37,440 nt of DNA. Origin: a phage. Of the stretch, positions 4,023 to 30,126 are shown in pieces. Made by a program: the position numbers and the translations under genes. The stretch is from the NCBI GenBank assembly GCA_025289735.1, contig GCA_025289735.1_4764.1; one strand, written 5' to 3'. The notes under the pieces were generated by a model. That model was not told where the DNA came from and did no database searches. It saw only the letters and a list, made by a program, of their open reading frames with translations. Numbering within the stretch: the stretch's first letter is position 1; the number at the start of each line of letters is the position of its first letter.

Positions 4023-4336
4023 ACATAGCCCCCAACTACACGCATAACAAAGGTCTTGAGTTTATACCAGAAAGTTTCTTTTTTCAACTTTTCTTCTGCT
4101 TCTTTGATCTGCGCGGTTAACGCCTTAATGACGTGTGGATATACCACATCACGATCTGACGGCGTGGAGTAGTCGACCACAATACCTTTAGTGTCTGGAT
4201 CGTATTCAACATTATGAATATAGACAATATGATGTTCTCCCTCTTCATCAACAATTATCAATTCCTGAATAACTGTCTTCATTGCTTCTTGAATCAAGCC
4301 GTGTGCTTCTTCTAAACTTGTTGGTTTCTTATCCAT
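4019..4336 (-). CDS. hypothetical protein (105 aa), positional equivalent of T4 gene 40
   Basis: ORF track; stop overlaps gp41 ATG (ATGA); SD GAGAGGA. Assignment is positional only. Confidence 0.55.
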   Translation of the reverse strand: MDKKPTSLEEAHGLIQEAMKTVIQELIIVDEEGEHHIVYIHNVEYDPDTKGIVVDYSTPSDRDVVYPHVIKALTAQIKEAEEKLKKETFWYKLKTFVMRVVGGYV

Positions 4337-4391
4337 AATATAATCCTCTCTAGATATGAAAAAGGGGCACGTAGCCCCTTTACTACCATTG

Positions 4392-5462
4392 TTATGCTAA
4401 CATATCTTCGATTTCTTTGTCAACTGCTTCGTCGCTGATCACTTGCCCCAGCTTATAATGATCGTTGATTGCTTCGTTAAACTTATCGTTTGTCAGAAGT
4501 GGTTTCCAGAACTCAATGCTATTGGTTTCTTTAGCACGGAACTTGCGTTCTTCGGTTTCCATCTCTCCGGTCTCGGTATTTAGGATTGAACGAGAATACC
4601 AGCCGTTTGACGGTTTCACTACCCAGCCTAACTCTACAGCCAATTCCAGCAAGCCGGAATAAGGATCGATGCCACCGCTAAATGTTACGCTAATCGGGAA
4701 CTTCGATTTTTCTTTAACGGTTCGTGATTTTTCCGCATTCAGGATAAAATCATAACCAGTAATTTCGGTTCCTTCTTTCTGCTGACGACGACCAATAATG
4801 AAAACTTCATTGGCTGAATACATCGCGCCCGTACCGCCGGACATAACGGTCTTACTAAACATTTCTTGCGTTTCGTAAGTGTGGTTAATAGCGATGCACG
4901 GGATATCATTCATAGTCAGATACGGCGTAACCATACGGAACAAGCCTTTAAGTGCTTTCGCTCGCGTCATATCCTGTGCGGATTTCTCATTAATCGCGTC
5001 TTCAACTTCTTTTTTACTTGCCAAGTTACCGATTGAGTCAATAAAGATGATCACTTTATCTTCACGGGTAATTTGCTCAAGCTGGTTCATGATTTCAAAT
5101 TTAAGTTCTTCGATGTTCTTGATTGGAACATGCACTACGCGATCAGGATCTACGCCCATAGATTCCAGATAAGCGGGCGTGATACCGAACTCAGAATCAA
5201 AGAACAAACAAGCCGCATCGGGATTCTGTTTCATGTATGCACTAACACAAGTTAATCCCATGTTTGATTTAAAGTGCTTAGACGGACCAGCAAAGAAAAT
5301 CAGACCAGATTGAAAGCCTTTTTTAAGATCACCGGAAAACGCAATATTCAGCATCGGGATCTTAGTGCGAGTATTTGTTTTTTCGTTAAAGAAGCTGGAT
5401 TTAGACAGTACCGCAGTAGTTTTCAGGGTAGAGTTCTTTTTCAGTTTTTCCAGTACAGACAT
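4392..5462 (-). CDS. uvsX: UvsX recombinase (RecA-like)
   Basis: 356 aa; extensive identity to T4 UvsX (KIPMLNIAFSG, GPSKHFKSN, FDSEFGITPAYL, DSIGNLASKKE, IPCIAINHTYETQEMFSKTVM, SRTVKEKSKF). Confidence 0.95.
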   Translation of the reverse strand: MSVLEKLKKNSTLKTTAVLSKSSFFNEKTNTRTKIPMLNIAFSGDLKKGFQSGLIFFAGPSKHFKSNMGLTCVSAYMKQNPDAACLFFDSEFGITPAYLESMGVDPDRVVHVPIKNIEELKFEIMNQLEQITREDKVIIFIDSIGNLASKKEVEDAINEKSAQDMTRAKALKGLFRMVTPYLTMNDIPCIAINHTYETQEMFSKTVMSGGTGAMYSANEVFIIGRRQQKEGTEITGYDFILNAEKSRTVKEKSKFPISVTFSGGIDPYSGLLELAVELGWVVKPSNGWYSRSILNTETGEMETEERKFRAKETNSIEFWKPLLTNDKFNEAINDHYKLGQVISDEAVDKEIEDMLA

Positions 5463-5473
5463 TATTAATACCT

Positions 5474-5662
5474 CTATTCAGTTAATCCGTAATACTTTAA
5501 TTGCTTCATTGTTATTCGATCTTTGTAGTGCTCTTGAATTAACTTTTTCATCGCATCAACATCGATCGTCACAAATACTTCGTTGCTGTGATTTCCGTGA
5601 ACTTTCTTGAAATGCTCTATGCCTTCCTCACGTTCACGTTTAATCTTTTCAATGTCTCTCAT
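5474..5662 (-). CDS. hypothetical small protein (62 aa)
   Basis: Track ORF 5474..5701 starts at a GTG that lies at or upstream of the transcription start predicted from promoter 5707..5734; first ATG downstream is 5662. Sits where T4 has beta-gt/42/imm. Confidence 0.4.
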   Translation of the reverse strand: MRDIEKIKREREEGIEHFKKVHGNHSNEVFVTIDVDAMKKLIQEHYKDRITMKQLKYYGLTE

Positions 5663-5706
5663 AATATATTTCTCACGTTGGCGGGTATCGTCACCCAACA
5701 CCCGCC

Positions 5707-5734
5707 ATTATACACACTTTATCTTAAATGTCAA
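5707..5734 (-). promoter_or_regulatory. sigma70-type early promoter (-35 TTGACA, 16-bp spacer, -10 TATAAT)
   Basis: Plus strand reads attata(5707-5712) and tgtcaa(5729-5734); perfect hexamers on minus strand directly after the gp43 stop. Confidence 0.6.
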
Positions 5735-8402
5735 ACAGGTCTGTAAGAGATGCCACTTTTTCATATTGCAGCTTTGCAGCCGTGGTAATGTTCTCCAGTG
5801 GTTTGACGAAAGTCTTATTAAACAACAAAGGCCAGTCTAACCACTTTAACACCTCTGATTCAATTTCTGGCGGAATACGAGTACCAGACAACCAACCAAA
5901 ACAGATTTCTCCAAACGGATTTCGATCTTTCAGCGGTACAATCATAACCTTCTCGCCCTCACGAATCGGATCTAGTCCGAATTTTCGAGCATTACGATTA
6001 TAACACAATACACTCTTAACCGCATACGGACAACCCTTAATCGGATACCCGTTTGAATCGCTGTATTTCTGTAGGTTGTTTGCAGATGATACCGCAGCAA
6101 CATCAAGATAGTCAAGTTTTCTAAATTCTTGCTCAAAAATACCGTAGTATTCCTGCAATGAATCTTCACCTTCCTGCAACATACGGCGAATACATTCTTT
6201 CAGTGATTTCTGACATGCTTTAGGGGTGGAGCTACGTTGCGTTTCCAAGCCCATGATTTTTAGCTTAGGTTCAGCAAAGCGCGTTCCTTCCATATCCCAA
6301 ACATTAAGAGCATAACGCTTTTTACCAGTCCAGAATCCACCGATACCCGCAGATTTCAACGGAGGACCAGCAATTGCCTCTCGGTCCATAAACATCAAGT
6401 GCTCATAGTTGTTCATGTACTCGCATAACTCGCGATATCCCTTGTCGATAATAGGTTCCATTCGATGTTTACCGAAATTATCAAGGAAGTCAACAAGTTT
6501 TTCGGTATCGTCGAAACGGTCTTCCCCGCCAACCTTATCAATAACATTGTTAACCAGCACATAAACGGAGTCAGTATCACAATAACGAACATATGCAAAA
6601 TCAGTCGTTCCGCAAAGCTCGTTTAAGTATTCGTTAATCTTACGCTCAATCCACTGAATTGCAAGCTGACCGAACAGTGTGATCGCACTAGCGTTACGGA
6701 GATCATAAAAACGGAATTTAGGATTCCCCAACGCACCATAAAGGGAGTTGATCAAAACTTTTCGAGAAAGCTGGTTTGTATTGCACAAGATCGACTCGTC
6801 TTTACATTCTTCCAGCAATTTCTCTAAGGCATCTTTACTTAATTCAGAAAGCATCGATTTAAACGCTTCATCGAAGTCGTGACGCACTTCAACGCTATAG
6901 CTAATGGTTCCCCCATAAACATGATTTTCATCGTGTAGAATCGCTTTACATAGTTCAGCATTGCGATCACATGCCAACATCATGTTTTTGTACTGCTTAC
7001 GCTGATCGAATACCTTTTTAATCTCAATCGGTACGATACCATGAATATCTTTTCTATACATCCACCCGTTAGGCGAGCAAGAATACTCATCACTCGGACG
7101 TGGTGCAGTTTTATTGATATACTCGTGCATCGGTGCAGCATCAAAAGATCCGGCGATTGTTTCCGGCGAAATATTAACCTGTCGAATAATAGATGGATAC
7201 AGACTGGTTAAGTCAAAGCTCATCATCCAACGGTAAGCATTCGGCACAGGTTCTTTTACGAATGCGCCTGGATACGTCTGCTTAGGCTGTATCTTGTTCT
7301 CTGGTACTACTTTACCCTCAGCTTTCAGAGATCCGAAGATAATAGCATCCCATACTTTCATCGGGTTATAAACATGGTTAAATTTAATCTTTGCATAGAA
7401 ACATAGACTATACACAAGATCGATAAATCCACGCTTTTTATCAATCGCCAGCACACGATCAACGTCGCCGATGTTATAATCGATGTAAAGTTGATGGTTG
7501 TCATCACGCAATTTCTTTAACGGACCATCATAATCAACCTTACCGATTCCTGTCTCATATTCAGCAACATAATCTAACGCATATGTTGGTTGAGTCGTAA
7601 AGCTAAATTTCTTGTACAGGTCAATATAATCAAGGCTTTCGATCCCCATGATCGTAAATGCTTCACGCTCGTTTCCAAAATCATCCTGTGAGATTCTGGA
7701 TTTAATCTTACCGCACGGGCTTAGACGGTTAGCGGTTCTACTTCCGAACTTATTACTGATACGTTTAATGATATATGGAATATCGAATGTTTCTGTGTTC
7801 CAGCCAGTGAAACCAACGGGTCGGTTTTCCTCAAAGAATCGGATGTATTCTAACAGCAATTCATCTTCTGTGTCATAGACGTTATAAACAACGCGCTCTA
7901 CGATATCAGGTCGAAGAATAGACTTGCTTGCTTCCCATGATTCACCGTTTTTTCCTTTCAAATCAAATACAAAGAAACGGTCATGTACGGAATCATAATG
8001 CGTAATTGCATCGATAGGATATTTCGCTTCTTCTGGTTTAGGAAATTCTGGGGCAGTGACCTCAATATCAACCCATGCTACACGGATTTTATTTCGGTCA
8101 TATCGAATCTCTCCTTTATACGTATCGGACAGATAGGAGATGATAAAATCATCCATCCCTAGTGCCTCTTGCCCCATCTCCCCCATCTTTTTACGCCATT
8201 TGTTGGCCTCGTTCATAGAGGGGAATTTTTTAGCAATGCAAGGCTTGCCATAGATATCTTTATAATTTGTAACCATACCAGGCGCGGCATGATGAAATAA
8301 AGTTGGCGTATATTCAACGTAACGCTCTTGTTCTTGTCCAGCATCATCAATATAACGCTCGTAGATCTTATCACCTACTCGCTCACATGACAGAAAATAC
8401 AT
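5724..8402 (-). CDS. 43: DNA polymerase (T4 gp43, family B)
   Basis: Long colinear identity to T4 gp43 (ERYID, DIYGK, KFPSM, DAITHYD, SFDLTSLYPSIIRQVNISPETIAG, INSLYGALGN, YCDTDS, FMDREAIAGPP, GGFWTGKKRYALNVWDMEG, KIMGLETQ). Track start 8432 is a GTG upstream of the promoter; I place the start at ATG 8402 with GAAGGAG SD. Confidence 0.95.
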   Translation of the reverse strand: MYFLSCERVGDKIYERYIDDAGQEQERYVEYTPTLFHHAAPGMVTNYKDIYGKPCIAKKFPSMNEANKWRKKMGEMGQEALGMDDFIISYLSDTYKGEIRYDRNKIRVAWVDIEVTAPEFPKPEEAKYPIDAITHYDSVHDRFFVFDLKGKNGESWEASKSILRPDIVERVVYNVYDTEDELLLEYIRFFEENRPVGFTGWNTETFDIPYIIKRISNKFGSRTANRLSPCGKIKSRISQDDFGNEREAFTIMGIESLDYIDLYKKFSFTTQPTYALDYVAEYETGIGKVDYDGPLKKLRDDNHQLYIDYNIGDVDRVLAIDKKRGFIDLVYSLCFYAKIKFNHVYNPMKVWDAIIFGSLKAEGKVVPENKIQPKQTYPGAFVKEPVPNAYRWMMSFDLTSLYPSIIRQVNISPETIAGSFDAAPMHEYINKTAPRPSDEYSCSPNGWMYRKDIHGIVPIEIKKVFDQRKQYKNMMLACDRNAELCKAILHDENHVYGGTISYSVEVRHDFDEAFKSMLSELSKDALEKLLEECKDESILCNTNQLSRKVLINSLYGALGNPKFRFYDLRNASAITLFGQLAIQWIERKINEYLNELCGTTDFAYVRYCDTDSVYVLVNNVIDKVGGEDRFDDTEKLVDFLDNFGKHRMEPIIDKGYRELCEYMNNYEHLMFMDREAIAGPPLKSAGIGGFWTGKKRYALNVWDMEGTRFAEPKLKIMGLETQRSSTPKACQKSLKECIRRMLQEGEDSLQEYYGIFEQEFRKLDYLDVAAVSSANNLQKYSDSNGYPIKGCPYAVKSVLCYNRNARKFGLDPIREGEKVMIVPLKDRNPFGEICFGWLSGTRIPPEIESEVLKWLDWPLLFNKTFVKPLENITTAAKLQYEKVASLTDLFDI

Positions 8403-8434
8403 AATATAAACTCCTTCACTTACGAAAGACACTC

Positions 8435-8463
8435 ATTATAGGGGAATCGACCTAGTTTGTCAA
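8435..8463 (-). promoter_or_regulatory. sigma70-type promoter upstream of gene 43 (-35 TTGACA, 17 bp, -10 TATAAT)
   Basis: Plus strand attata(8435-8440) and tgtcaa(8458-8463), between regA stop and gp43 start. Confidence 0.6.
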
Positions 8464-8484
8464 TACCCCTATCCCATCAGTATC

Positions 8485-8847
8485 TTATCGCCCGATCTGA
8501 TATTTCTCGATCAGTGTCCATTCTTCTTTCTGTTTGAAAGACAATACACGGAAATTATTAACTTCGGTAGTTTCAAAATCACTATCAATCAGGGTACACA
8601 GATTCCACTGCGCAAGAAGTTTTGCAATGTTATTACGGCGTAATTCATCTTCCCACGTCATTTTAACACTACGACCATCTAATTTCAACAACTCCTTGAA
8701 ATGAACGATGTAATAGCGCCCCTTCTTCTGGAGAATATGACAAGACTGATACAGTGTCTTGTCTCGATTGTTGGCAATGCCGCAGCGGGTTAAAGTTTCC
8801 TTAATTTTAAGGAAGTTTTCAGGACTAATCAAATTAATTTCAATCAT
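8485..8847 (-). CDS. regA: translational repressor RegA
   Basis: 120 aa; near-identity blocks to T4 RegA (FLKIKETLTRCGIANN, LYQSCHILQKKG, YYIVHFKE, NNFRVLSFKQK). Confidence 0.9.
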   Translation of the reverse strand: MIEINLISPENFLKIKETLTRCGIANNRDKTLYQSCHILQKKGRYYIVHFKELLKLDGRSVKMTWEDELRRNNIAKLLAQWNLCTLIDSDFETTEVNNFRVLSFKQKEEWTLIEKYQIGR

Positions 8848-8848
8848 T

Positions 8849-9427
8849 TTACCACCTTTCTATAATCTTTTTAAGTCGTTTCCTTTCTGTCTGATTCTTA
8901 GTAACACCCGCCAAAAGTTCATCGGTCGCATACGGTTTAATGTGCTTCAATAACTTGTCCATATATCCCTTTTCATTAGCCAAATCGAGATAAAACCGGG
9001 CGTCATCCATATTTACACAATATGCTTTCGCCACTGCCATTAAAACCAATTTTTGGTCCAATTCTTCTGTTAGTTTAGCCCATTTACCGTATCGTTTCCC
9101 CTTAGAAATACTCTGTAAGAGATAATCAAAATGCATTTGATCTGGGAGGCCATGACCGATTAAATTCATCACATACGCGCTATATAGGCAATCTGCGTGC
9201 TGGGAAAGAGCGGTGTTAATCCATCTCTGGTTATATGCAGAATTGTTTCCCACATTAACGCGCTGTTTATCTAAGGTGATATGATCCATCAGAGCAAATA
9301 ATGCATTGTCGGTTTTCTCGGTGAATGTGTCAGCTAATTCAGACACCTTTTCCCAATCACGAGAGCGCCATGCAATTTCATGCTCGTTTAATTGTGTATC
9401 ATCTTCACCGAAAAATTGACCTAACAT
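8849..9427 (-). CDS. 62: clamp loader small subunit (T4 gp62)
   Basis: 192 aa; matches T4 gp62 (QLNEHEIAW, AYVMNLIGHGL, KGKRYGKWAKL); start overlaps gp44 stop. Confidence 0.85.
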   Translation of the reverse strand: MLGQFFGEDDTQLNEHEIAWRSRDWEKVSELADTFTEKTDNALFALMDHITLDKQRVNVGNNSAYNQRWINTALSQHADCLYSAYVMNLIGHGLPDQMHFDYLLQSISKGKRYGKWAKLTEELDQKLVLMAVAKAYCVNMDDARFYLDLANEKGYMDKLLKHIKPYATDELLAGVTKNQTERKRLKKIIERW

Positions 9428-10401
9428 TATACGAACTCCAATTCAACCATTAATTGCATTAACAAAAAGACAATGTGAATCTCTTTATCAGCCGCGTGCG
9501 CAAACATCTGATTATTTTCACCGATAATCTCAGTGAGACGAATAATAGAAGCTGGCTTAACTTGAGTATACAACTCATTATAAAGTTTCTTGACAAATTG
9601 AGCGTATGTATTGGTATAGCGCGGTGCGAGTTTACGCACATTAGCAAACTGTTTAGTTTTAAGTGCTTCCACCACATCGGTTACTTCGGTATTGCTACTT
9701 TCGATAACCATACTCAATACGCCAGCATCAATTTTACCATGTTTAGCGTAGCGGTCCAAAAGTTTCATTACGCGCCGGAAGTCTGGGAAGTTCTGCTTAA
9801 CCAATTCCGCTAATACGCGCATTTCTTCTACTGGTACACCTTCTTTATCAAGAATTGCCTTACACCGGACGATCATTTCTTTCATCATGCGAAGCTGATC
9901 ATCTTTAGTCGGAGATCCAAACGTGATGGGATCAAATCGAGATCGTAACGCTGGGATAATACCTTCTAGATCGTTTGCTGTGATAATGAATGTCACGTTG
10001 TTTGAGTATGCCTCAGAGAAACTACGCAAGTGTCTTTGAGCATCAGCCAACCCCGCTCGGTCATACTCATCGATAATAACAACTTTGCCTTTTTCTCGTT
10101 TTTCTTCATCGAGTGATACACTCTGCGCAAAGCGTGTAATCTCATCGCGGATAAAATCAATCTTACAATCTGCGCCGTTAACAAACAGATAATCAACACC
10201 CACATCTTCGCAAAGCGCCTTAGCAACGGTTGTTTTACCAGTACCCGGCGATGGGCTATGCAGAATCATTGAAGGGATTCGTCCTTGCTTAACAATCTGC
10301 GCGAAGATCTTTTTATCTGCTTCCGGCAGAATACATTCAGAAATTGATTTCGGACGGTATTTCTGTTCCCACTGAAACTCGTTTTCATTAACACTCAGCA
10401 T
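9427..10401 (-). CDS. 44: clamp loader large subunit, AAA+ ATPase (T4 gp44)
   Basis: Walker A HSPSPGTGKTTVAKALC, Walker B VIIDEYDR, SRF sensor; strong identity to T4 gp44. Track start is GTG at 10416; ATG at 10401 has GAGAGGTGA SD and aligns with the T4 N-terminus. Confidence 0.95.
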   Translation of the reverse strand: MLSVNENEFQWEQKYRPKSISECILPEADKKIFAQIVKQGRIPSMILHSPSPGTGKTTVAKALCEDVGVDYLFVNGADCKIDFIRDEITRFAQSVSLDEEKREKGKVVIIDEYDRAGLADAQRHLRSFSEAYSNNVTFIITANDLEGIIPALRSRFDPITFGSPTKDDQLRMMKEMIVRCKAILDKEGVPVEEMRVLAELVKQNFPDFRRVMKLLDRYAKHGKIDAGVLSMVIESSNTEVTDVVEALKTKQFANVRKLAPRYTNTYAQFVKKLYNELYTQVKPASIIRLTEIIGENNQMFAHAADKEIHIVFLLMQLMVELEFV

Positions 10402-10439
10402 ATAATCACCTCTCACAAATTACATCATTAAAAAGGGGA

Positions 10440-10464
10440 GTATTTACACTCCCCACAAACATTA
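10440..10464 (-). terminator. intrinsic terminator-like hairpin between gene 45 and gene 44
   Basis: Minus strand GGGGAGTgtaaatACTCCCC followed by TTTTT, 3 nt after the gp45 stop. Confidence 0.45.
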
Positions 10465-10466
10465 TA

Positions 10467-11153
10467 TTAGTCGGTGTAGCTGGAGTCAAGGTCACACGCG
10501 ATCATATAAGATACGGTTTCACTTGCCAGCCATACAGCCTTACGGCGAGTGAAGCTCAGTTTGTAATCGCCGAAGTCAGTAGCAACCAGTTTCATGTTAT
10601 CTTTACGAATAAAGAAATGGAAGTCTGCGGTTCCGGTATATTCGCCCATATCAAGACAAAACATCTCATTAGGATTATTTTTGTCAATCTCTTCCCAGCC
10701 TTTGATCATCAGACGACCATCAATCGGAAGAAATTCAAGGCGATCCACTTTAAGCTGATTGCTCATTTTCATAAGCTGTTTCAGATCGTCGTTGCTCAGT
10801 TCGTAATCTACATCGCTTGCAGGTGGAGTAACTCGGCCTTTCGGTGATACGATAGCGGCAGCACTAGCACCAGGGTAATTAATTTTCAGACGATCATTAG
10901 ACACACGAATGTTTCCGGTGCGGTCATCAACCGTAATATCTGCTTCATCGCCTACCAGATTCAGAATACCCAAGAAAGAGTTAAGATCATAGATCCCAAT
11001 TTCGTGTTCCAGTTCTTGATTCAGAGTCGCTTCACCATATACAACGTTTGTCATGTTTTTGGTGATCAGGACGTTTCCTTTTTTCAGGATGATACCTGGG
11101 TTAATAGCGGAAAAGTTTTTCAGGGTAGCAATGGTTTCTTTAGTCAGTTTCAT
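10467..11153 (-). CDS. 45: sliding clamp (T4 gp45)
   Basis: 228 aa from ATG 11153 (AAGGTGA SD); identity to T4 gp45 (MKL.K.T.A.LKNF, IYDLN.FLGIL.LV). Confidence 0.9.
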   Translation of the reverse strand: MKLTKETIATLKNFSAINPGIILKKGNVLITKNMTNVVYGEATLNQELEHEIGIYDLNSFLGILNLVGDEADITVDDRTGNIRVSNDRLKINYPGASAAAIVSPKGRVTPPASDVDYELSNDDLKQLMKMSNQLKVDRLEFLPIDGRLMIKGWEEIDKNNPNEMFCLDMGEYTGTADFHFFIRKDNMKLVATDFGDYKLSFTRRKAVWLASETVSYMIACDLDSSYTD

Positions 11154-11183
11154 CAAATCACCTTTATCATGTTAATCAATTAA

Positions 11184-11576
11184 TTACGGGTTTACTTCGT
11201 GCTCATTTTGAATCTTTAGCATTCTTTCGATAAATTTTTTCTCGGCTTCCTTATCGGATGAGTGAGTATACTTCAATCCAATGTAAGCTGTCAAGTATTG
11301 TTGTAGAGCATAGACAGTAACCGGATTCTTTGCGGTCTTTTTGCCGTCGAGATATACCAGATCACCACGAACATCAAACGCAAGTTTACGACGAATTACA
11401 TCATCAACAAATTTATCTAGGACAAAATACCACTCAATACATTCTATCCCGTGACGGTAGTTCATTACATCATTATCTTTGATATAGTCAAACGGAATAT
11501 GACATAATTTACGATTTTGTAGGATGAATAGCATTTGTTCTTTTAAGCTCATACGTTTCATTCTATCACTTCCCAT
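11184..11576 (-). CDS. hypothetical protein, positional equivalent of T4 rpbA
   Basis: ORF track (132 aa with TTG start); internal ATGs at 11576 and 11561, so start is uncertain. No motif-level assignment. Confidence 0.45.
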   Translation of the reverse strand: MGSDRMKRMSLKEQMLFILQNRKLCHIPFDYIKDNDVMNYRHGIECIEWYFVLDKFVDDVIRRKLAFDVRGDLVYLDGKKTAKNPVTVYALQQYLTAYIGLKYTHSSDKEAEKKFIERMLKIQNEHEVNP

Positions 11577-11943
11577 CAGCAATTGCGATCAGACGAGTTA
11601 CTACTACGCTAGCGGCTTCAATCAGAAGTTCATCAGTGTCAATCTGATAACCCTTTTCGAGAATATCTTTACCTCGAATAGTTTTAGCGCCTTTAGCAAT
11701 TGAATCATCGTAATACTTGCGCATTGCCGCGATCCATTCTTTTTGCACCATATCATCAATATGCGCGTACAGTTCAAAGCGTGCTTGCTGCGGGATAACC
11801 TTCATTTTAGCTTTCTCGCTTTCCGGCATTTGTAGCACCCACGCTTTACGGATCTTGTTCATTGCTCGGTCAAATTCGAGACTGGTTTTCTTGTTCTGAA
11901 TGTCTGCTACAGTAATTTTAGCCAGGTTTGCGGAAGTAGTCAT
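11566..11943 (-). CDS. hypothetical protein (125 aa)
   Basis: ATG 11943 with GGAGA SD (track start further upstream is an alternative codon). Confidence 0.5.
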   Translation of the reverse strand: MTTSANLAKITVADIQNKKTSLEFDRAMNKIRKAWVLQMPESEKAKMKVIPQQARFELYAHIDDMVQKEWIAAMRKYYDDSIAKGAKTIRGKDILEKGYQIDTDELLIEAASVVVTRLIAIADGK

Positions 11944-11967
11944 AATATTAATCTCCAAAATAAAATC

Positions 11968-11996
11968 AGTATATCACGTTCTAAAGTTTGTTGCAA
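11968..11996 (-). promoter_or_regulatory. candidate sigma70 promoter (-35 TTGCAA, 17 bp, -10 TATACT)
   Basis: Plus strand agtata(11968-11973) and ttgcaa(11991-11996); weaker -35 than the other promoters. Confidence 0.35.
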
Positions 11997-12204
11997 CCCC
12001 AGCATCAGGGTAATCAAGTTTATCAAAGTTGGGGACCAGCATAAACTCATGATGACGACAAGACAACATTTTTGTTATGTCTGCATCGCTGTATATGCTG
12101 TTTTTCATATCCCCCATACTAACTACATATTCTTCACCGGAATATAGATTGATTAAGGTATACAATTCTAACTCCGGCTGCGTCACTCTGTCAAATGTTA
12201 ACAT
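11974..12204 (-). CDS. hypothetical protein (76 aa)
   Basis: ORF track; ATG 12204; overlaps gp46 stop by 14 nt. Confidence 0.45.
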   Translation of the reverse strand: MLTFDRVTQPELELYTLINLYSGEEYVVSMGDMKNSIYSDADITKMLSCRHHEFMLVPNFDKLDYPDAGVATNFRT

Positions 12205-13873
12205 TCATTTCAGTGAATCGCCCACGTTTAACCATCTTGAGATGACGGCTAAAATCATCAGGGTTATGGTCACGATGGCTGATAATATACACGTTATCAT
12301 CTAACTTGTCAATGATGGAATCAAGTGCTTTTACGCCTTGAACGTCCGTAGCCCCATCATAAATTTCGTCGAGTACCAACAAAGAAATATTAGTACCAGA
12401 TACTTTACCAGCAACATCACGCCATGTAAAGAGCATCGCAAGGTCAATACGTGCTTTTTCGCCTTGACTGAATGATGTATACGAAAACGATTCACGCCCC
12501 CGTGATTTGATTGTTTCGTTAAACTCTTCATCTAGCGTAAAGATATAATCCGCTTCCATGATATCAAGATAATATGCAATCCGATCATTGAAATATGGAA
12601 TATATTTCTTGACGATAGACGCCTTAACACCGGAATCCTTCAACATTTCTGTTACAAATCCACGGTGATATTTTTCAAGAACTAGCTTTGATTTTTCATT
12701 AGTGATCTCTACCAGTTCGTGTTCCAGTTTAGCAAGTTCTTCGGAATTGTCAACCCTTTCTTTTTGCAATTCTTGCATTGCTTTCTGGATCTGTTTAGCC
12801 CGACCTACAGATGCCGTTAAATTCGCTCTCTGTGACTCTATAGCGCGTTTAATTTCCAAGACCTTAGTTTGTGCTGTCTGAAAAGAATTGGCCTTCTCTG
12901 CGTATTCTACGCGTTTCTCGTCAATCAGAGACAGTTTATGTTCTGCTTGTGCTTTTTGTTCGCGTACAGCCTGATCATTACCCTGAATGATCGGTTGTGT
13001 GCACGTAGGACAGATCCCGCCTTTCTCGTGCATATGGATAACACGATCAAAGTTCTGGATCTGTGCACCAATCTGTGCGATAGCAGTATTAATTTTAGCC
13101 AATGCCGCGCTAGGATCTTCCGGCATAACAACAGCCAATAGCTCATCGGTCAAGCGCGTTTCTTCGGCTTTAAATGCTTTAGCCGATTCTACCTCTTTGT
13201 CATACATATTCTGTAAACGCTGGAGATTCTCGGCACTCGCCTTGCTAGCGTCTTCTATGTACTTTTTATGAGTGTTGATTTGTTGCTGAACGTGATTAGC
13301 TTTCATTTCCTGCATTTGGATATTCTGGGTAATCTCGCGCACATACGCTTTATTCAGTTTATCCATTTCGCCTAGCGTAGCAATATCAAGCAAATCCTCG
13401 ACCAGTTTACGGCGACCCGCTGCCGGAAGACTCATAAACGGAACATAACCAGCAGTGCCTAAAACAACGATCTGTTTAAAGCTGGCTAGGTTCATTCCTA
13501 TGATACCTTCAAAATATTCCTGAAAGTCTTTGGTGCTTGCGCTCTCGTCGATCTTTTGACCGTCGCGATGCACTTCGAATACTTCCGGCTTTTGACCACG
13601 TTTGATATAAAACTCTTTCCCGTCCAGTTCAAACCAGACTTCGACTAACAGTTTCTTTTTGTTGACGCTGTTAATCAATTGGCCTTTCTTGATACTACGA
13701 AACGGTTTACCGAACAACACAAAGCAAAGCGCCTCGATCATGGTCGATTTACCAGCACCGTTAACACCAGTGATTAGTGTCTTTTTGAATCCGTCTAGCT
13801 GAATCTCAACAGGTTCAGCACCCACGCTCATTATATTTTGATAGCGCAAGGTTTTAAAATTTAACTTTGCCAT
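12191..13873 (-). CDS. 46: recombination exonuclease subunit, SbcC/Rad50-like (T4 gp46)
   Basis: Walker A GVNGAGKST; long identity to T4 gp46 (FELDGKEFYIKRGQKP, FKQIVVLGTAGY, KYIPYFN, MEADYIFTLDEEFNETIKSRGRE, LLVLDE). Start set to ATG 13873 (GGAGTGG SD), not the track's TTG at 13888. Confidence 0.9.
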   Translation of the reverse strand: MAKLNFKTLRYQNIMSVGAEPVEIQLDGFKKTLITGVNGAGKSTMIEALCFVLFGKPFRSIKKGQLINSVNKKKLLVEVWFELDGKEFYIKRGQKPEVFEVHRDGQKIDESASTKDFQEYFEGIIGMNLASFKQIVVLGTAGYVPFMSLPAAGRRKLVEDLLDIATLGEMDKLNKAYVREITQNIQMQEMKANHVQQQINTHKKYIEDASKASAENLQRLQNMYDKEVESAKAFKAEETRLTDELLAVVMPEDPSAALAKINTAIAQIGAQIQNFDRVIHMHEKGGICPTCTQPIIQGNDQAVREQKAQAEHKLSLIDEKRVEYAEKANSFQTAQTKVLEIKRAIESQRANLTASVGRAKQIQKAMQELQKERVDNSEELAKLEHELVEITNEKSKLVLEKYHRGFVTEMLKDSGVKASIVKKYIPYFNDRIAYYLDIMEADYIFTLDEEFNETIKSRGRESFSYTSFSQGEKARIDLAMLFTWRDVAGKVSGTNISLLVLDEIYDGATDVQGVKALDSIIDKLDDNVYIISHRDHNPDDFSRHLKMVKRGRFTEMNVNI

Positions 13874-14117
13874 TAAGCCACTCCGCAATCACACATTCCA
13901 TAATATTAAATGCTAACACATCTTCATCAATGTTGTAAACACTTGCCGCCTTCACTTTAACTAATGTGTCTCTGCGATCTGGCAACATGATCACATAATC
14001 CAGTGTCGCCGGATCATATGTCATAAAGGGATCAACATAAATCCCTTTATTCAATGCCAGATATTCGCGAAGACCTTCTATAACCCTGTGTCTAAGGTAG
14101 GTCATCGATAGAATCAT
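13854..14117 (-). CDS. hypothetical protein (87 aa)
   Basis: ORF track; ATG 14117 overlaps stop of upstream ORF (ATGA). Confidence 0.5.
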   Translation of the reverse strand: MILSMTYLRHRVIEGLREYLALNKGIYVDPFMTYDPATLDYVIMLPDRRDTLVKVKAASVYNIDEDVLAFNIMECVIAEWLNGKVKF

Positions 14118-14686
14118 TTTAGTTTATGTTCCTCTAAAAATTCATCAATTTCACCTTGCAGGTCTTCCGCTTGTTGTTCCAGAATATCGCGAAATTCACC
14201 TACCGTCAAGCGGTGATCACATTTCACCAGTCGATGTGGGAGAATATACCCTTTATACATCGTCTCTGACGCTTCCAGGAATACCCCACTATGCATAACA
14301 GAGATCCAACCTGTTAGCGTCAATGGAGTATTCGGAAAATAATATTTGCTGGATTGTTTCCACTGGACGAAAGCACCATATACAATCGGATTATATTCAC
14401 CAACCACACTCTTAATAATGGATTCTACTTTGTCTTTTACAAAGTCGCCAATGCCCATAGTCACCATCAATTCTTGTGGGTGAATCACTTTAAGGTAACG
14501 ACGGTAGCCGTCATCATACCACATCTTAACAACTGGCCGACCCCACATTTTAGCAATACGCGCTTTCAGATAACCATAGATCGGATTCTTGTAATATGAT
14601 TGTTTTTGTGTGTATGCGTGCACCAATTCAATAAAATATTCCATTGCTATCGAATCAGGATCAGCCGCGACCATAGTCGTATTCAT
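14114..14686 (-). CDS. hypothetical protein (~190 aa)
   Basis: Track ORF 14114..14710; I prefer ATG 14686 because of its GAGGAA SD. Start is uncertain. Confidence 0.5.
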   Translation of the reverse strand: MNTTMVAADPDSIAMEYFIELVHAYTQKQSYYKNPIYGYLKARIAKMWGRPVVKMWYDDGYRRYLKVIHPQELMVTMGIGDFVKDKVESIIKSVVGEYNPIVYGAFVQWKQSSKYYFPNTPLTLTGWISVMHSGVFLEASETMYKGYILPHRLVKCDHRLTVGEFRDILEQQAEDLQGEIDEFLEEHKLK

Positions 14687-14978
14687 AATATGTTCCTCGT
14701 TCAATTTCATATTGTTTCAGGTCTTCTAAAAGTTCATCCACTGCTTGTTTCAGCACATGACGCAGCGTAAAGTAATAGCTTTCATCAAATTCTATTTCCG
14801 CGCGAGGAATAGAACGAAACTTACACTTAACAGTAGTATCGGTGAGTCGCTTTTCGACCATCATCCGAACTTCTTCATGCTCTTTGGAATACCATACATC
14901 AACGGAGATCCCCTTGCGTCGAGCAAACATAGGCAATGCCGCATTAAATTCCATTACTTTTTGTGCAAGTGTTTTCAT
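14661..14978 (-). CDS. hypothetical protein (105 aa)
   Basis: ORF track; overlaps the downstream gene by about 26 nt. Confidence 0.45.
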   Translation of the reverse strand: MKTLAQKVMEFNAALPMFARRKGISVDVWYSKEHEEVRMMVEKRLTDTTVKCKFRSIPRAEIEFDESYYFTLRHVLKQAVDELLEDLKQYEIERGTYYEYDYGRG

Positions 14979-15226
14979 CGTACAGACCCCATAGATCCAC
15001 GCGCAATAACATTCTGGGTAATATCAGCAACCTTACGGGATACGATGTTTGTTAGCCCCTCTTTGGTGATATTTTCACGATCAAATGGGATTTCGTCATG
15101 AGTCCACAAACCATAGTTAGATCGAAATGATAGCATATACTGACCATCTCGCACAACCTCAAATACATGGATCTTAGTGAATTTCGACAAACCTTCGTTG
15201 ATTTCTTTCAGTGCATTAGTAATCAT
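14975..15226 (-). CDS. hypothetical protein (83 aa)
   Basis: Track start 15238 is TTG; ATG 15226 has GGAGG SD and lies downstream of promoter 15253..15281. Confidence 0.5.
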   Translation of the reverse strand: MITNALKEINEGLSKFTKIHVFEVVRDGQYMLSFRSNYGLWTHDEIPFDRENITKEGLTNIVSRKVADITQNVIARGSMGSVR

Positions 15227-15252
15227 AACAACCTCCAATCAATTTTTTAGAG

Positions 15253-15281
15253 AGTATAACGGGGATTTCTCCCCGCGTCAA
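15253..15281 (-). promoter_or_regulatory. PeSL-like early promoter (-35 TTGACG, 17 bp with palindrome CGGGGAGAAATCCCCG, -10 TATACT)
   Basis: Plus strand agtata(15253-15258) and cgtcaa(15276-15281), immediately after the gp47 stop. Confidence 0.55.
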
Positions 15282-16307
15282 CTAACTTTTTGCGTTATTT
15301 ACTTCGGCTAAAAGTTCATCAGAAATACGCTTGACCGCCGCAAGTTCTTCCGGTTCTAAGTTTTGTTCTTCCAGATATTCATAGACCATCTGAATAGTGC
15401 TTTTAACTTCAATAACACCTGTTTCCTGTGATGCGCTACTCTCCAACTTATGGACCACTTTTAGCTTGTGTACAACGGCCTCTAACGCGCTTTCTAACTT
15501 AGTTAACCCATTATCAGCGACCGTTGCGATAAGACGCACACTAAGCCCCTTAAAGCGTTCTACATCGATTTTATCATCTGACGGGTAAGTGATACGCACA
15601 TGATAAGTTTTGTCATTCTGGATAAACTCCTTTTTGTGTGTATCTGTATCGAATACCCAAAAACCACGCGGATCATTTTCGTCACCCGCCGTTAGTGTGT
15701 ATGGTGTACCAATATACGTTACGTTGCCGCCATCACTGATAGTATGAAAGTGACCGGAAAACACTTCACGGTATTTCTTGAGGAAGTCCGCGCTATAACC
15801 TTCGGATTTTAACCCTTTATAGAAATAGTAGCCAGACAATTCCCAATGGCCTACACAATATTCGCTGAATGAATTTTGAATAAACTCTAAAACCTCTGAT
15901 TTATTATCATCACAAAACCACGGGAACAGATCGAACGATACCCCATCAAAGGTAACTGTTTCCGGCTTATCAATGACCTTAATGCAATCATACTGGCTTA
16001 ACACTTCACGCGGCGCGTTAGGCTGGATCTTATTGCGCTTAAACATATCATGATTCCCGACCGTGATATAACAAGTAATGCCAGCCTCTTCCAGTAATGG
16101 GATGACCTTAGTACGGTTAAATTTCATGGTTTCATGGGTAATTGCTTTTCGGCAATCAAACCAATCCCCTGTTTGAATCCATGTCTTAATATTATGCTCT
16201 TTGGAGTATTCAACCGCTTTCTTGATGGTATCAAGAATATACTCATGCACCCACGGATCATCGCCACCGATACCAGTATGCAGATCACCTAAAAGCAAAA
16301 TTTTCAT
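15282..16307 (-). CDS. 47: recombination endonuclease subunit, SbcD/Mre11-like (T4 gp47)
   Basis: 341 aa; phosphoesterase motifs (LGDLH, GNHD, GHWE, GHFH) and strong identity to T4 gp47; ATG 16307 with GAGAGGAAGAG SD. Confidence 0.9.
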   Translation of the reverse strand: MKILLLGDLHTGIGGDDPWVHEYILDTIKKAVEYSKEHNIKTWIQTGDWFDCRKAITHETMKFNRTKVIPLLEEAGITCYITVGNHDMFKRNKIQPNAPREVLSQYDCIKVIDKPETVTFDGVSFDLFPWFCDDNKSEVLEFIQNSFSEYCVGHWELSGYYFYKGLKSEGYSADFLKKYREVFSGHFHTISDGGNVTYIGTPYTLTAGDENDPRGFWVFDTDTHKKEFIQNDKTYHVRITYPSDDKIDVERFKGLSVRLIATVADNGLTKLESALEAVVHKLKVVHKLESSASQETGVIEVKSTIQMVYEYLEEQNLEPEELAAVKRISDELLAEVNNAKS

Positions 16308-16351
16308 AGTCTCTTCCTCTCTTCGTTTTCGATGCTCTCACTATATCACAG

Positions 16352-16375
16352 AAAAATAAAAAGGGAAACCCTTTT
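16352..16375 (-). terminator. terminator-like hairpin upstream of gene 47
   Basis: Minus strand AAGGGtttCCCTT followed by a T-rich run (TTTTATTTTT), between ORF 16398..16685 and gp47. Confidence 0.35.
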
Positions 16376-16397
16376 CAGAGTCTCCCTTATAAAGCCA

Positions 16398-16685
16398 TTA
16401 CAGCATACTTAATACCGTTTGCCGTGTACTAATCCACATAGCAGAAAGCAGTTCTGGCGTGTGTGGCTGTTTGTAGATATCACGTAATTTTCCGATAGCG
16501 TAGATATACGCATCACGATTATCATCGATGATAGCTTGTTCAGCCCACCGCTTAAGGCGTGCAATCTCTCGCGAGTTCTTACGCAAGATCTTTTCCGCTT
16601 TCTTAGCGGCTTTAGCCTCTAGTTCTGCTTGTACTTTGTCTACTTCATTCACTGCAATCTGGTCATGCTGTTCATCGTAAGTCAT
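16398..16685 (-). CDS. hypothetical protein (95 aa)
   Basis: ORF track; ATG 16685 with GAAGGA SD; lies where T4 has alpha-gt/47.1. Confidence 0.5.
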   Translation of the reverse strand: MTYDEQHDQIAVNEVDKVQAELEAKAAKKAEKILRKNSREIARLKRWAEQAIIDDNRDAYIYAIGKLRDIYKQPHTPELLSAMWISTRQTVLSML

Positions 16686-16686
16686 G

Positions 16687-16920
16687 TTATTTTCCTTCTG
16701 GGATATAGTCGATGATTAAAGAAAATTCATCTTCTGATACATTATAGCTATGTGAGATTGTACCCGTAAAGACCTCAAGATCCGGTGATTTGATATTGCA
16801 CGGATCGATAATCACCGGAACGCCGCAATCTCTCAAAAATAATTTGGCGAAATACGGCACAAGGTCAGTTTCAAACTCTGCTTCTTCCAGCAAACGGGAA
16901 ATGTTAATTTTCAATCTCAT
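16687..16920 (-). CDS. hypothetical protein (77 aa)
   Basis: ORF track; ATG 16920; overlaps gp55 3' end by 17 nt; weak SD. Confidence 0.4.
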
Positions 16921-17437
16921 AAAATTGGTCCAGGCTAGGCAATTCCTCGGTCAATACATCTTCAACCTTTGGCGCTTTCGGTTTATTGACCGATTCCTCG
17001 TAGTTGTTGATTTTATCGTAAATGTCCTGTATGAATGCCTCATCCGCAATCTGGCACATATCAGCGTCGCGTTCGTCATATACATGATGCACAAAATATT
17101 TGTATTTTGCGGCTGTCGCTGTTCTCTCTTTTTTAATGCGCTGTACAAAAGCATTAAAGCACGCTTGCGTGATGTAAGCATGAGGATTTTTATACTTTGT
17201 CTCGTCAAAATTAATCAAACCCTTGACCGCCGCTTCGATTCCATCGTCGATCATTTCTTCGCGCCATGTTTGACTATAGCCAGAAAAGTTAAAACGACGT
17301 GATAGATTTTTAGAGATTTGCATAATTGCTAGGCCGATTTGATCGCTCATTGGAACTTGCCGACCTTCTGCTGCAATTTGTTGTTTCCAACGGCAAATTT
17401 CTTCGTAAAGCTCTTTATTGTTTACATAATCAGACAC
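16904..17437 (-). CDS. 55: late-transcription sigma factor (T4 gp55)
   Basis: Strong identity to T4 gp55 ([63 protein letters not shown]). Appears to start with GTG 17437 (GAGGGTG SD 7 nt upstream); no in-frame ATG before residue 30. Confidence 0.88.
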
Positions 17438-17465
17438 TTCGCACCCTCGCTATTATTTAGGAAAT

Positions 17466-17482
17466 AACCCTTTCGGGCTATT
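17466..17482 (-). other. small GAAA-loop hairpin overlapping stop of the 489-aa ORF
   Basis: Minus strand AGCCCgaaaGGGTT; weak element, role unclear. Confidence 0.25.
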
Positions 17483-18947: not shown

Positions 18948-19234
18948 TAGAAACCCTTACGTCGTGCTTTCTGGCATTTCTTGATCATTTTATCAGAAAT
19001 TTCGCGCTTCGGTGCAATCTCTTTCACACCGAAAGCACTAATGCCAAATTCAGAGAGAATATATTCAACTAACAATTCACGCACACGCGCTTTACCGATA
19101 TTCACGCCGTTATTTTTCAGATATGTCTGGCCTTCGACTTGCATCAGATCTAAATCTGCGTCGGTAATATTGATTTCTTCCATGCGCCCAAATCGAGAAT
19201 AAACCATGTGTGCGATTGCATTGTGTACTAACAT
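18947..19234 (-). CDS. hypothetical protein (95 aa), possible helix-turn-helix
   Basis: Track start 19252 is TTG; ATG 19234 has GAGGAA SD. Translationally coupled to the NTPase downstream. Confidence 0.5.
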   Translation of the reverse strand: MLVHNAIAHMVYSRFGRMEEINITDADLDLMQVEGQTYLKNNGVNIGKARVRELLVEYILSEFGISAFGVKEIAPKREISDKMIKKCQKARRKGF

Positions 19235-19255
19235 AATATATTCCTCACTCAAGAA

Positions 19256-29313: not shown

Positions 29314-30126
29314 TCAATCTACGTTAGTTACATAAACTTCTTGCGTATCAGAAGACTTACCACCTGAACGATCTAGGCAATAGGTCTTATTCAACAGGAC
29401 GCAGTTTAGATCATTCCGCTTGATAAAGTCAAGAAGATGATCATTCACCTTTCCCTTATGATGCGTGACATTACTGATACCAAACTGAAAACCACGCGCC
29501 ATAATAGATTCTACCCACTGATAGAATTTAATCTCTTCCTCGTCACTCCAGAACTTATTATATTCCGCAGAAGTGATAAGGTACGGCGGGTCCAAATAAA
29601 CGAAATCACCTGGCAAGATCTCGATCTCGTCATATCGTCCAGAAGTAAAATTGATTCGACCGTCTTTGTTTTCTTCCTTAAAATTCAGGACACGCTCTAC
29701 CGCGTTTTCGTTAAAAGTCCGGCGACCAAAATTAGCATTAAATTCGCCCTTCCGGTTATGGCGGTTAATGTTGCTAAAACTATGCTGAATCAACACAAAC
29801 AGCGATAGCGGATCTGGATTCTCGTTATACTTCTTACGGAATGTCATGTAAGCGTCTTTATCTTCGCGAGACAAACCATTTTCGACAATAATCCGCTTGA
29901 TCATAAAAACCGGATCAGGACACTCATCAATCGCTTTGTACGCGTCAATTAAGCGGTGATCATAGTCATTAGCCAACACATCCCCTTCGACGTACAGAGA
30001 CACGCTCAAGCCGCCACAAAAGGCATCAACAAAGCGGTTATAGTGCTTAGGGAAATACTTACTAACATCTGGCAATAACTTTTCCTTATTGCCAGTATAG
30101 GGAATTAAACCTAATGCTTTCTTCAT
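29314..30126 (-). CDS. dam: DNA adenine methyltransferase (Dam, GATC N6-A)
   Basis: 270 aa; motifs YTGNK, RFVD.FCGGLSVSL, FVYLDPPYLIT, YNKFWS.EEE, SNV; colinear with T4 Dam. Confidence 0.9.
   Translation of the reverse strand: MKKALGLIPYTGNKEKLLPDVSKYFPKHYNRFVDAFCGGLSVSLYVEGDVLANDYDHRLIDAYKAIDECPDPVFMIKRIIVENGLSREDKDAYMTFRKKYNENPDPLSLFVLIQHSFSNINRHNRKGEFNANFGRRTFNENAVERVLNFKEENKDGRINFTSGRYDEIEILPGDFVYLDPPYLITSAEYNKFWSDEEEIKFYQWVESIMARGFQFGISNVTHHKGKVNDHLLDFIKRNDLNCVLLNKTYCLDRSGGKSSDTQEVYVTNVD

Follow-up and report, generated by a model that had tools for sequence, protein, structure and literature searches.

The window, a 37,440-bp (37-kb) stretch of the isolate's genome, carries the genes listed in Table 1 between uvsX and gene 55, all of them on the minus strand. 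In T4, uvsX and 43 are separated by segA, b-gt, 42, imm and imm.1 (3,635 bp), whereas the two genes are 261 bp apart here; the T4 slot between 47 and 55, with 47.1, a-gt, mobB and a-gt.2 to a-gt.5, takes up 3,152 bp as against 596 bp in the window. A preliminary description of this DNA had placed the T4 modification genes correctly (the full T4 order is uvsX-segA-b-gt-42-imm-imm.1-43 and 47-47.1-a-gt-mobB-a-gt.2-a-gt.3-a-gt.4-a-gt.5-55), and its picture of the window also holds: the gap that it put at ~260 bp with one 62-aa ORF is as described, and the two small ORFs (95 and 77 aa) that it saw between 47 and 55 are homologues of a-gt.4 and a-gt.5. These two genes are thus conserved from T4, as are the flanking core genes uvsX, 43, 47 and 55 (55–64% identity), and the a-gt.5 homologue overlaps gene 55 in both phages; its Pfam match (DUF5491, 3.3e-4) falls under the gathering score.

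The 62-aa ORF occupies the same slot as T4 imm, but an Imm analogue is ruled out, since the predicted protein is highly charged and hydrophilic and has no membrane or hydrophobic segment. The promoter upstream of it corresponds to minus_35 and minus_10 signals annotated beneath the junction match in the RB49 record, and the sequence around the adjoining hairpin (5660–5740) folds at −26.5 kcal/mol (z = −3.95). The open frame of gene 43 extends to 8432; its start is more likely the ATG at 8402, as also suggested by the 892-aa SAP annotation. The rest of positions 5463–16903 is fully tiled by 43, regA, 62, 44, 45, rpbA, 46, 47 and eight small ORFs, and no glycosyltransferase or thymidylate-synthase domain was found in the small ORFs of this region with Pfam or PHROGs. 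The 76-aa ORF is annotated 'hypothetical protein' in JSE. At the place where T4 has 46.1 and 46.2 lie four ORFs with neither a Pfam match nor similarity to either T4 gene.

Table 1 Features of the region and its flanks, and the dam homologue elsewhere in the window
Feature	Position	Strand	Evidence
uvsX recombinase	4392..5462	-	Pfam T4_UVSX_C 4.7e-35 and RecA; 64% identity to T4 UvsX
uvsX-43 junction, 261 bp	5463..5723	.	Collinear single 900-901-bp piece in 59/59 Krischvirus records
62-aa ORF, Krischvirus-specific, function unassigned	5474..5662	-	phrog_12120 E 7e-42; no Pfam match
12-bp G+C-rich hairpin	5679..5707	-	Directly after -10 box, upstream of 62-aa ORF
Perfect sigma-70 early promoter, TTGACA-16-TATAAT	5707..5734	-	12/12 match; overlaps gene 43 stop codon
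Gene 43 DNA polymerase, uninterrupted	5724..8402	-	Pfam DNA_pol_B and exo domain; 55% identical to T4 gp43 over 903 aa
regA, 62, 44, 45 (translational repressor, clamp loader, sliding clamp)	8485..11156	-	Pfam Translat_reg, Phage_clamp_A, Gp44_lid/Gp44_C, gp45-slide_C
Unassigned ORF (phrog_16137), rpbA, 76-aa ORF (phrog_1045)	11184..12204	-	Pfam Phage_RpbA 7.7e-42; PHROGs
Gene 46 (Rad50/SbcC-like)	12191..13888	-	JSE annotation, collinear gene
Four Krischvirus-specific ORFs (87, 198, 105, 87 aa as ORFs)	13854..15238	-	phrog_14972, 16328, 15856, 15867
Gene 47 (Mre11/SbcD-like)	15282..16307	-	56% identity to T4 gp47
47-55 junction, 596 bp	16308..16903	.	Collinear in 53/59 Krischvirus records
Terminator-like hairpin with T run	16361..16388	-	Between a-gt.4 and gene 47; annotated terminator in several relatives
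a-gt.4 homologue, 95 aa	16398..16685	-	Pfam DUF2654 1.3e-22; T4 a-gt.4 tblastn 6e-12, 44% identity
a-gt.5 homologue, 77 aa	16687..16920	-	phrog_1169 2.7e-29; T4 a-gt.5 tblastn 4e-7, 32% identity
Gene 55, late sigma factor	16904..17437	-	61% identical to T4 gp55
dam homologue	29314..30126	-	Pfam MethyltransfD12 7e-30; 47% identical to T4 Dam

Relationship to Krischvirus genomes

Positions 5000–17500 match 59 Krischvirus records, including RB49, JSE, Phi1, SAP and TB34, at 95–99% nucleotide identity over at least 80% of their length (97.8–98.3% for region 5463–16903 in the best 25 of the 59), and positions 17500–37440 match 54 records at 90–99% identity with at least 80% coverage. Judged by this ~98% identity, the window can be assigned to an RB49-like (Krischvirus) coliphage, as the preliminary description had guessed in calling it an RB49-like 'pseudo-T-even' phage. 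Gene order and both compact junctions are identical in RB49, Phi1, JSE, GEC-3S, TB34 and others. RB49-type phages also share with the window the consensus early promoters and the absence of tRNA genes (none found in a tRNA search of the window); seven perfect TTGACA-N15-18-TAWAAT promoters occur in the window against 0.15 expected, and near-perfect sigma-70 early promoters of this kind (PeSL) have been described for RB49-type phages (PMC4122927).

Differences between the window and these phages are at the level of isolates. Genes 43 and nrdD are unbroken in the window, whereas in JSE they are split by an intron or homing-endonuclease remnants, and the window lacks the HNH endonuclease that lies between 47 and a-gt.4 in RB49 (NC_005066), JK32, phiS and MIZ4/5. 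The six records in which the 47–55 junction is not collinear have a homing endonuclease adjoining gene 47 (annotated HNH in three). Each of the 59 records has two compact junctions; for the genus Krischvirus, empty T4 slots are the norm.

Cytosine-modification genes in complete relatives

The window is only part of the isolate's genome, and the gene content of the remainder is taken from relatives. The tblastn search that the preliminary description had proposed was run with T4 and T6-type proteins on three complete Krischvirus genomes: LF73P4, a re-sequenced RB49 (OZ035808) and SAP. None of the three has a match to b-gt, a-gt, ba-gt, imm, alc, denB, ndd, arn or ipI. For the DNA glucosyltransferases (alpha-gt, beta-gt and the beta-alpha-gt of T2/T6), nothing better than E 0.5 was obtained in the window or the three genomes, and alc, denB, arn and ipI are likewise without a match in the window. 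With gp42 as query, the window gave no match, and in the relatives td was the sole match, at a best E of 4e-4 to 0.03. The same distribution of presence and absence is given by the gene inventories of RB49, Phi1 and JSE (Petrov 2010, Table 4) and by PMC8056088: RB49-type phages lack 42, a-gt, b-gt, alc and denB, and keep 56 and denA. The absence of the T4 cytosine-modification genes from RB49-like phages is thus already known, having been described in 2010 and earlier.

Two places where a modification gene might be hidden were examined. The td gene, which adjoins frd in Krischvirus, is the only thymidylate-synthase relative found; a disguised dCMP hydroxymethylase is ruled out here, since the protein is 38–43% identical to T4 td and combines the catalytic Cys with the dUMP-type Asn (PFNVASY) at the specificity position, where gp42 has Asp (the E. 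coli ThyA row of this alignment serves as a guide only). Pfam was scanned with the 71 LF73P4 ORFs that reach 100 aa and have no T-even homologue; in the 25 best of 35 families, down to E 0.0015, nothing pointed to a hidden glycosyltransferase, a TET/JBP gene or another gene of the thymidylate-synthase type.

Several genes of T4 nucleotide metabolism and DNA handling are retained. Homologues of cd, td, frd, 1 and 56 occur in the Krischvirus relatives, as do denA and dam; gp56 (dCTPase/dUTPase) is 42–51% identical to its T4 counterpart and gp1 (dNMP kinase) 36% identical, and gene 56 of JSE lies just left of the window's edge. At face value, gp56 and denA act against cytosine DNA, and their retention counts against the reading that these phages have plain-cytosine DNA. 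The preliminary description had put gene 56 among the queries of its proposed search; the gene is not a marker of hmC DNA, a homologue being kept in Krischviruses that lack the hmC genes. The dam homologue is the only recognizable DNA-modification gene in the window, where it adjoins nrdC and 49, whereas in T4 dam lies between 56 and 61.

DNA chemistry and restriction-site content

Published digests show that HpaII and NheI cleave the DNA of RB49, and TB34 yielded canonical nucleosides by LC-MS with no modified base detected (PMC13390438). Together with the three complete relatives and the 2010 inventories, these data support the earlier suggestion that the phage does not make glucosyl-hmC DNA. 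The base sequence itself points the same way. Six-bp palindromes occur at 0.64 of expectation in the window (24 absent) and at 0.68 in LF73P4, from which 17 of 64 are absent (TCCGGA, 0 observed versus 65.6 expected; GAATTC, 1 versus 45; AAGCTT, 0 versus 37). By contrast, T-even genomes show almost no avoidance of Type II sites (0.91–0.93), and CCWGG stands at 0.42 in Krischvirus versus 1.02 in a T-even. A literature search, which did not extend to Desplats 2002 (PMC135041), found no relevant earlier account of RB49 or Krischvirus genomes avoiding restriction sites. Site avoidance offers a test for unmodified DNA that needs only the genome sequence and may serve specialists.

Ordinary bulk cytosine would be compatible with methylation of specific cytosine sites by an enzyme whose phage gene lies outside the window, which we regard as possible but rather unlikely. 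A candidate exists in Krischvirus: a 238-aa protein (LF73P4 L005:31336-32052, minus strand; TRBSAP_055 in SAP, annotated hypothetical) in which motifs resembling those of C5-methyltransferases (FDGSG, FPPC, ENP, RSLTPRG) can be read by eye. It matches phrog_757 'DNA methyltransferase' at 8e-90, relatives of it are named C-5 cytosine DNA methylase in the sources, and DNMT3B, MET1 and DNMT1 are among the best PDB matches of its confidently predicted model (pLDDT 89). However, the TM-scores of this fold search are modest (0.41–0.47), with general SAM methyltransferases scoring nearly as well; the Pfam family PF00145 is reached only at E 0.058, and sequence searches of NCBIfam and the PDB gave no match. 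Each of the 14 substitutions that separate TB34 from SAP affects the middle base of a CCSGG site and could be a methylation-induced miscall. The LC-MS of TB34 showed no modified base, but ~30 sites per genome would escape detection. If such methylation did occur, 'no cytosine modification' would be too strong a statement, whereas 'no glucosyl-hmC' would stand.

A conflicting report concerns SAP, which is 98% identical to the window and for which 5-hmdC, alpha-gentiobiosyl-mdC and BrxU sensitivity were reported in 2026 with no known genes to explain them (PMC13390438). Taken literally, this report would mean that Krischviruses have a route to hypermodified cytosines that is not related to gp42 or any known glucosyltransferase, and that plain cytosine could not be predicted from missing T4 genes; we consider this very improbable. 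Such a pathway, itself an equally slim prospect, would have its genes in the genus-specific ORFs or be supplied by a co-infecting phage or the host: T-even homologues are lacking for ~70 Krischvirus ORFs of at least 100 aa, most of these ORFs have no assigned function, and tblastn and Pfam are blind to a modification enzyme of an unfamiliar family. Against this, the SAP nucleoside profile matches that of seven Tequatroviruses of the same collection (PMC13390438), and neither gp42 nor any glucosyltransferase is present in the SAP record. The record also lacks 24 of 64 six-bp palindromes, and in glucosylated DNA there would be no selection for such a loss.

Comparison of SAP with TB34, made from the authors' variant table and directly over the last 15 kb, bears on the same point. 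The 63 differences between the two assemblies comprise ~47 single-base indels, 14 substitutions and 2 complex variants, and the indels would frameshift the essential TB34 genes 43, 45, uvsX, 47, nrdB and 39. They look like sequencing error in one of the genomes, and there is then no genetic difference to explain the difference in modification. The SAP sequence comes from a Nextera library, and a library of this type might enrich unmodified DNA when the lysate is mixed. In our opinion, the re-read variant table suggests that the 2026 report reflects a mixed stock rather than new chemistry, a stock problem that may interest specialists.

That the isolate has genes for hmC and glucosylation somewhere outside the window is scarcely credible: only the window can be read for this isolate and genes do change places between T4 and Krischvirus (dam lies by nrdC in the window and by gene 56 in T4), but three complete relatives, at 98% identity over the window, have none of these genes, the published inventories of RB49, Phi1 and JSE agree, the genomes of the 59 relatives are of similar size, and the strong site avoidance inside the window argues for DNA exposed to Type II enzymes.

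Interpretation and related systems

From the gene content, the synteny, the absence of the genes from complete relatives and the site avoidance observed, the region is very probably the replication and recombination core (uvsX, 43, regA, 62, 44, 45, rpbA, 46, 47 and 55) of a Krischvirus phage that has no T-even hmC network. T4 and other T-even phages have gp42, alpha-gt and beta-gt or beta-alpha-gt together with alc, denB, arn and ipI. These four accessory genes make sense only alongside modified DNA. The window represents a genome type with no dCMP hydroxymethylase, DNA glucosyltransferases or these accessory genes; one of its T4 slots is filled by a single small early gene with a consensus promoter in front of it, the other by the a-gt.4/a-gt.5 pair. 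Such a phage would most likely replicate with ordinary dCTP and package ordinary-cytosine DNA, with at most site-specific methylation added by the Dam homologue in the window and by methyltransferase-like genes elsewhere in the relatives. Unmodified DNA is known from the literature for RB49 and TB34, and the present isolate probably behaves alike. Site avoidance would be the phage's anti-restriction strategy, restriction apparently being escaped mainly by purging Type II recognition sites from the sequence.

Other T4 relatives without hmC genes, for example RB43 of a different genus (Pseudotevenvirus), are described in the literature as lacking the genes for HmC transferase and denB, as having homologues of denA and dCTPase-dUTPase, and as carrying out generalized transduction of plasmids; RB43 differs in having ndd and a clear Pfam C5-cytosine methylase. 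For annotation, the window can be assigned to a cytosine-DNA relative of T4. Ordinary restriction enzymes cut such phages wherever their genomes retain a site, type IV enzymes (GmrSD or McrBC, for instance) do not target them, and they can transduce plasmids at measurable frequency, which is relevant to phage therapy.

Junction architecture and its conservation

The preliminary description had proposed that the T4 cytosine-modification genes are missing from their T4 positions, and this is confirmed in the window, where all genes of the region are encoded on the minus strand, their order established by Pfam and PHROGs matches and by tblastn of T4 proteins. As had been noted, uvsX and 43 lie about 260 bp apart (261 bp as measured) with a single 62-aa ORF between them, and 47 and 55 are separated by two small ORFs in a gap of 596 bp; this pair adjoining gene 55 is the conserved a-gt.4/a-gt.5, not novel genes. 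By contrast, the T4 record, with which the T4 layout given in the preliminary description agrees at both slots, holds 3,635 bp in the first (uvsX-segA-b-gt-42-imm-imm.1-43) and 3,152 bp in the second (47-47.1-a-gt-mobB-a-gt.2-a-gt.3-a-gt.4-a-gt.5-55).

Megablast places positions 5000-17500 at 95-99% identity to all 59 Krischvirus records covering them (including LF73P4, W115, JSE, SAP, TB34 and RB49; 97.8-98.3% for the best genomes), and the right-hand 20 kb of the window at 90-99% to the same records. Probed with 901 bp spanning uvsX-43, 59/59 records gave a single unbroken match; with 1,001 bp spanning 47-55 the match was unbroken in 53, and in none of the Krischvirus records matched does the 47-55 junction hold a glucosyltransferase. 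A homing endonuclease (annotated as HNH in RB49, MIZ4 and MIZ5) lies between 47 and a-gt.4 in RB49 (AY343333, NC_005066), JK32, phiS, MIZ4 and MIZ5, at the equivalent of window positions 16308-16397; in T4, mobB occupies the matching slot. The re-sequenced genome OZ035808 ('Krischvirus RB49') lacks this endonuclease and thus differs from the original RB49 sequence.

Genes 43 and nrdD are uninterrupted in the window, whereas in JSE both are split, 43 by an intron-like insertion and nrdD by a homing endonuclease; several other relatives carry ~0.5-1.1 kb of additional DNA within the gene 43 region. The four ORFs that stand in for T4 46.1 and 46.2 between 46 and 47 occur only in Krischviruses and contain no Pfam domain. 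The 489-aa protein downstream of 55 weakly matches DEAD/DEAH helicases (E 3e-6) and has no T-even homologue. The gene for a homologue of T4 Dam (47% identity) adjoins nrdC and gene 49; T4 dam sits between 56 and 61. The window has no tRNA genes. Perfect TTGACA-N15-18-TAWAAT promoters, the RB49-type early promoter reported along with PeSL elements (PMC4122927), number seven on the coding strand, where chance would give 0.15. One overlaps the gene 43 stop codon; after it, immediately before the 62-aa ORF, comes a stable hairpin. A second hairpin, which resembles a terminator, separates a-gt.4 from 47.

Coordinates of features in the window and in its relatives
Feature	Sequence	Position	Strand	Remarks
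41	window	2610-4022	-	Pfam/PHROGs/tblastn
40	window	4019-4336	-	Pfam/PHROGs/tblastn
uvsX	window	4392-5462	-	Pfam/PHROGs/tblastn
62-aa ORF	window	5474-5662	-	between uvsX and 43
43	window	5724-8402	-	start chosen partly from 892-aa SAP annotation
regA, 62, 44, 45	window		-	after 43, in this order
unknown ORF, rpbA, 76-aa ORF	window		-	between 45 and 46; 76-aa ORF 'hypothetical protein' in JSE
46	window	12191-13888	-	
four unknown ORFs	window	13854-15238	-	phrog_14972, 16328, 15856, 15867
47	window	15282-16307	-	
a-gt.4	window	16398-16685	-	
a-gt.5	window	16687-16920	-	
55	window	16904-17437	-	
489-aa protein	window	17478-18947		directly downstream of 55
nrdD	window	23916-25778		
Dam homologue	window	29314-30126		
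seven perfect sigma-70 promoters	window	5707-5734, 8435-8463, 23845-23872, 26350-26377, 28494-28522, 31719-31747, 34923-34950	-	
gene 56 homologue	JSE (L001)	10762-11280		just left of window position 1
thymidylate synthase	LF73P4 (L006)	20261-21484		
thymidylate synthase	RB49 re-sequence (L010)	4260-5492	-	
three-gene cluster	LF73P4 (L005)	30487-32052		
three-gene cluster	SAP	39772-41337		
279-aa methyltransferase	LF73P4 (L008)	12091-12930		
279-aa methyltransferase	SAP	162388-163227		

Modification genes elsewhere in the genome

Complete genomes of LF73P4, re-sequenced RB49 (OZ035808) and SAP were assembled and queried locally with proteins of T4 plus the beta-alpha-glucosyltransferase (ba-gt) of the T6-like phage CM8. 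None of the three contained a match to b-gt, a-gt, ba-gt, imm, imm.1, alc, denB, ndd, arn or ipI, and the sole gp42 match was weak (best E 4e-4 to 0.03) and fell in a gene adjoining frd. As a dCMP hydroxymethylase this candidate was rejected: it is td (38-43% identical to T4 td), with the catalytic Cys kept and, in place of the Asp of gp42, the Asn of 'PFNVASY'. Homologues of gp56 (42-51% identity), cd, denA, gene 1, frd and dam are retained; this pattern of presence and absence agrees with Petrov et al. 2010 (Table 4) and PMC8056088. A more sensitive check, a Pfam scan covering every LF73P4 ORF that has 100 aa or more and no homologue in a complete T-even genome (71 ORFs), returned no glycosyltransferase, thymidylate-synthase or TET/JBP family among the 25 best families of 35, down to E 0.0015. 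The check suggested earlier, a search for gp42, both glucosyltransferases and dCTPase (56), held for the first three, which are absent from the complete relatives, but not for gp56, whose homologue is present; gene 56 would mislead as a marker of hmC DNA because it is retained.

Gene 56 (dCTPase/dUTPase) is kept in these cytosine-DNA phages with varying identity to T4 gp56 (42% in JSE, 49-51% in others), and the 3' end of the JSE copy is overlapped by a gene for a homing endonuclease. Thymidylate synthase in Krischvirus reaches ~407-410 aa owing to a ~135-aa insertion after 'MYGMAWRR', which is absent from T4 td and E. coli ThyA.

Restriction-site avoidance and cytosine state

That the phage makes no glucosyl-hmC DNA, as in RB49-like phages, is supported by these searches in relatives, by the literature and by site avoidance. 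The lack of hmC and glucosylation genes is a textbook RB49-type property, on record since at least 2010. HpaII and NheI digest RB49 DNA but not T4 DNA (PMC4041780), TB34 DNA yielded canonical nucleosides only by HPLC-MS (PMC13390438), and plasmid transduction by Krischvirus and RB43-like phages has been attributed to missing hmC-dependent nucleases.

Site counts compared with maximal-order Markov expectation revealed very strong Type II site avoidance in Krischvirus and the window, whereas T-even genomes display almost none. Purging of this kind is expected for phage DNA exposed to Type II enzymes, not for glucosylated DNA; among the papers searched, none describes it for Krischvirus.

Observed/expected Type II sites
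Sequence	6-bp palindromes	Palindromes absent	CCWGG
LF73P4 (163 kb)	0.68	17/64	0.42
SAP	0.69	24/64	0.42
window	0.64	24/64	
HEMP5, complete T-even genome	0.91	1/64	1.02
T4, 93 kb	0.93	5/64	1.08

In LF73P4, TCCGGA (0 observed versus 65.6 expected), AAGCTT (0 versus 37), CCGCGG (0 versus 26), GAATTC (1 versus 45) and GGATCC (2 versus 35.5) are depleted, and some ten more palindromes occur just once or twice; in the T4 sample AAGCTT (52 versus 55.7) and GAATTC (51 versus 46.9) are not. CCWGG, CCSGG and GGCC stand at ~0.4 of expectation in Krischvirus (GGCC in LF73P4, 77 versus 180). GATC, by contrast, is avoided in T4 (102 versus 301) but not in the window or Krischvirus.

The SAP and TB34 records and putative methyltransferases

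SAP was reported to contain 5-hmdC and alpha-gentiobiosyl-mdC, and TB34, 99.96% identical, was not, for which the authors offered no explanation; seven Tequatroviruses from the same collection share the profile reported for SAP, and the published variant table (OZ034687.1 versus OX001802.1) lists 63 differences (PMC13390438). About 47 of these insert or delete one base and would put essential TB34 genes out of frame, among them 43, 45, uvsX, 47, nrdB and 39. All 14 substitutions fall on the central base of a SAP CCSGG, of which SAP has only 32 in total, with TB34 reading CCWGG and other Krischviruses mostly sharing the SAP base; the remaining two are complex variants. When the last 15 kb were compared directly (L021, SAP, versus L022, TB34), the same pattern emerged. 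From their sequences, the two records appear to represent a single genome determined on two occasions, one of them by an error-prone method, with TB34 seeming to carry systematic errors that may be due to methylation at CCSGG. The SAP record holds neither gp42 nor a glucosyltransferase; we infer that its nucleoside data probably reflect a stock that was mixed or mislabelled, in which the Nextera library used for SAP could have favoured unmodified DNA. That SAP instead modifies cytosine by a new pathway strikes us as highly improbable.

Since Krischviruses carry methyltransferase-like genes, site-specific methylation is possible, perhaps at the CCSGG sites miscalled in TB34; if real, it would refine the absence of glucosyl-hmC without overturning it. 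Outside the window, a three-gene cluster encodes a 238-aa protein with C5-cytosine-methyltransferase-like motifs (phrog_757, 8e-90), a zinc-ribbon protein of 109 aa, and one of 184 aa whose match to GmrSD-type restriction enzymes is confined to their N-terminal half (DUF262, DGKQR motif). Relatives of the 238-aa protein are called C-5 cytosine methylase by their sources, and the best PDB hits to its confident structural model include DNMT3B, MET1 and DNMT1, with TM-scores that are modest; SAP annotates its gene as 'hypothetical protein' and the others as 'phage protein'. A 279-aa protein with an NPPF motif (phrog_3820; Pfam MTS and Eco57I) brings the putative DNA methyltransferases of Krischvirus to three.
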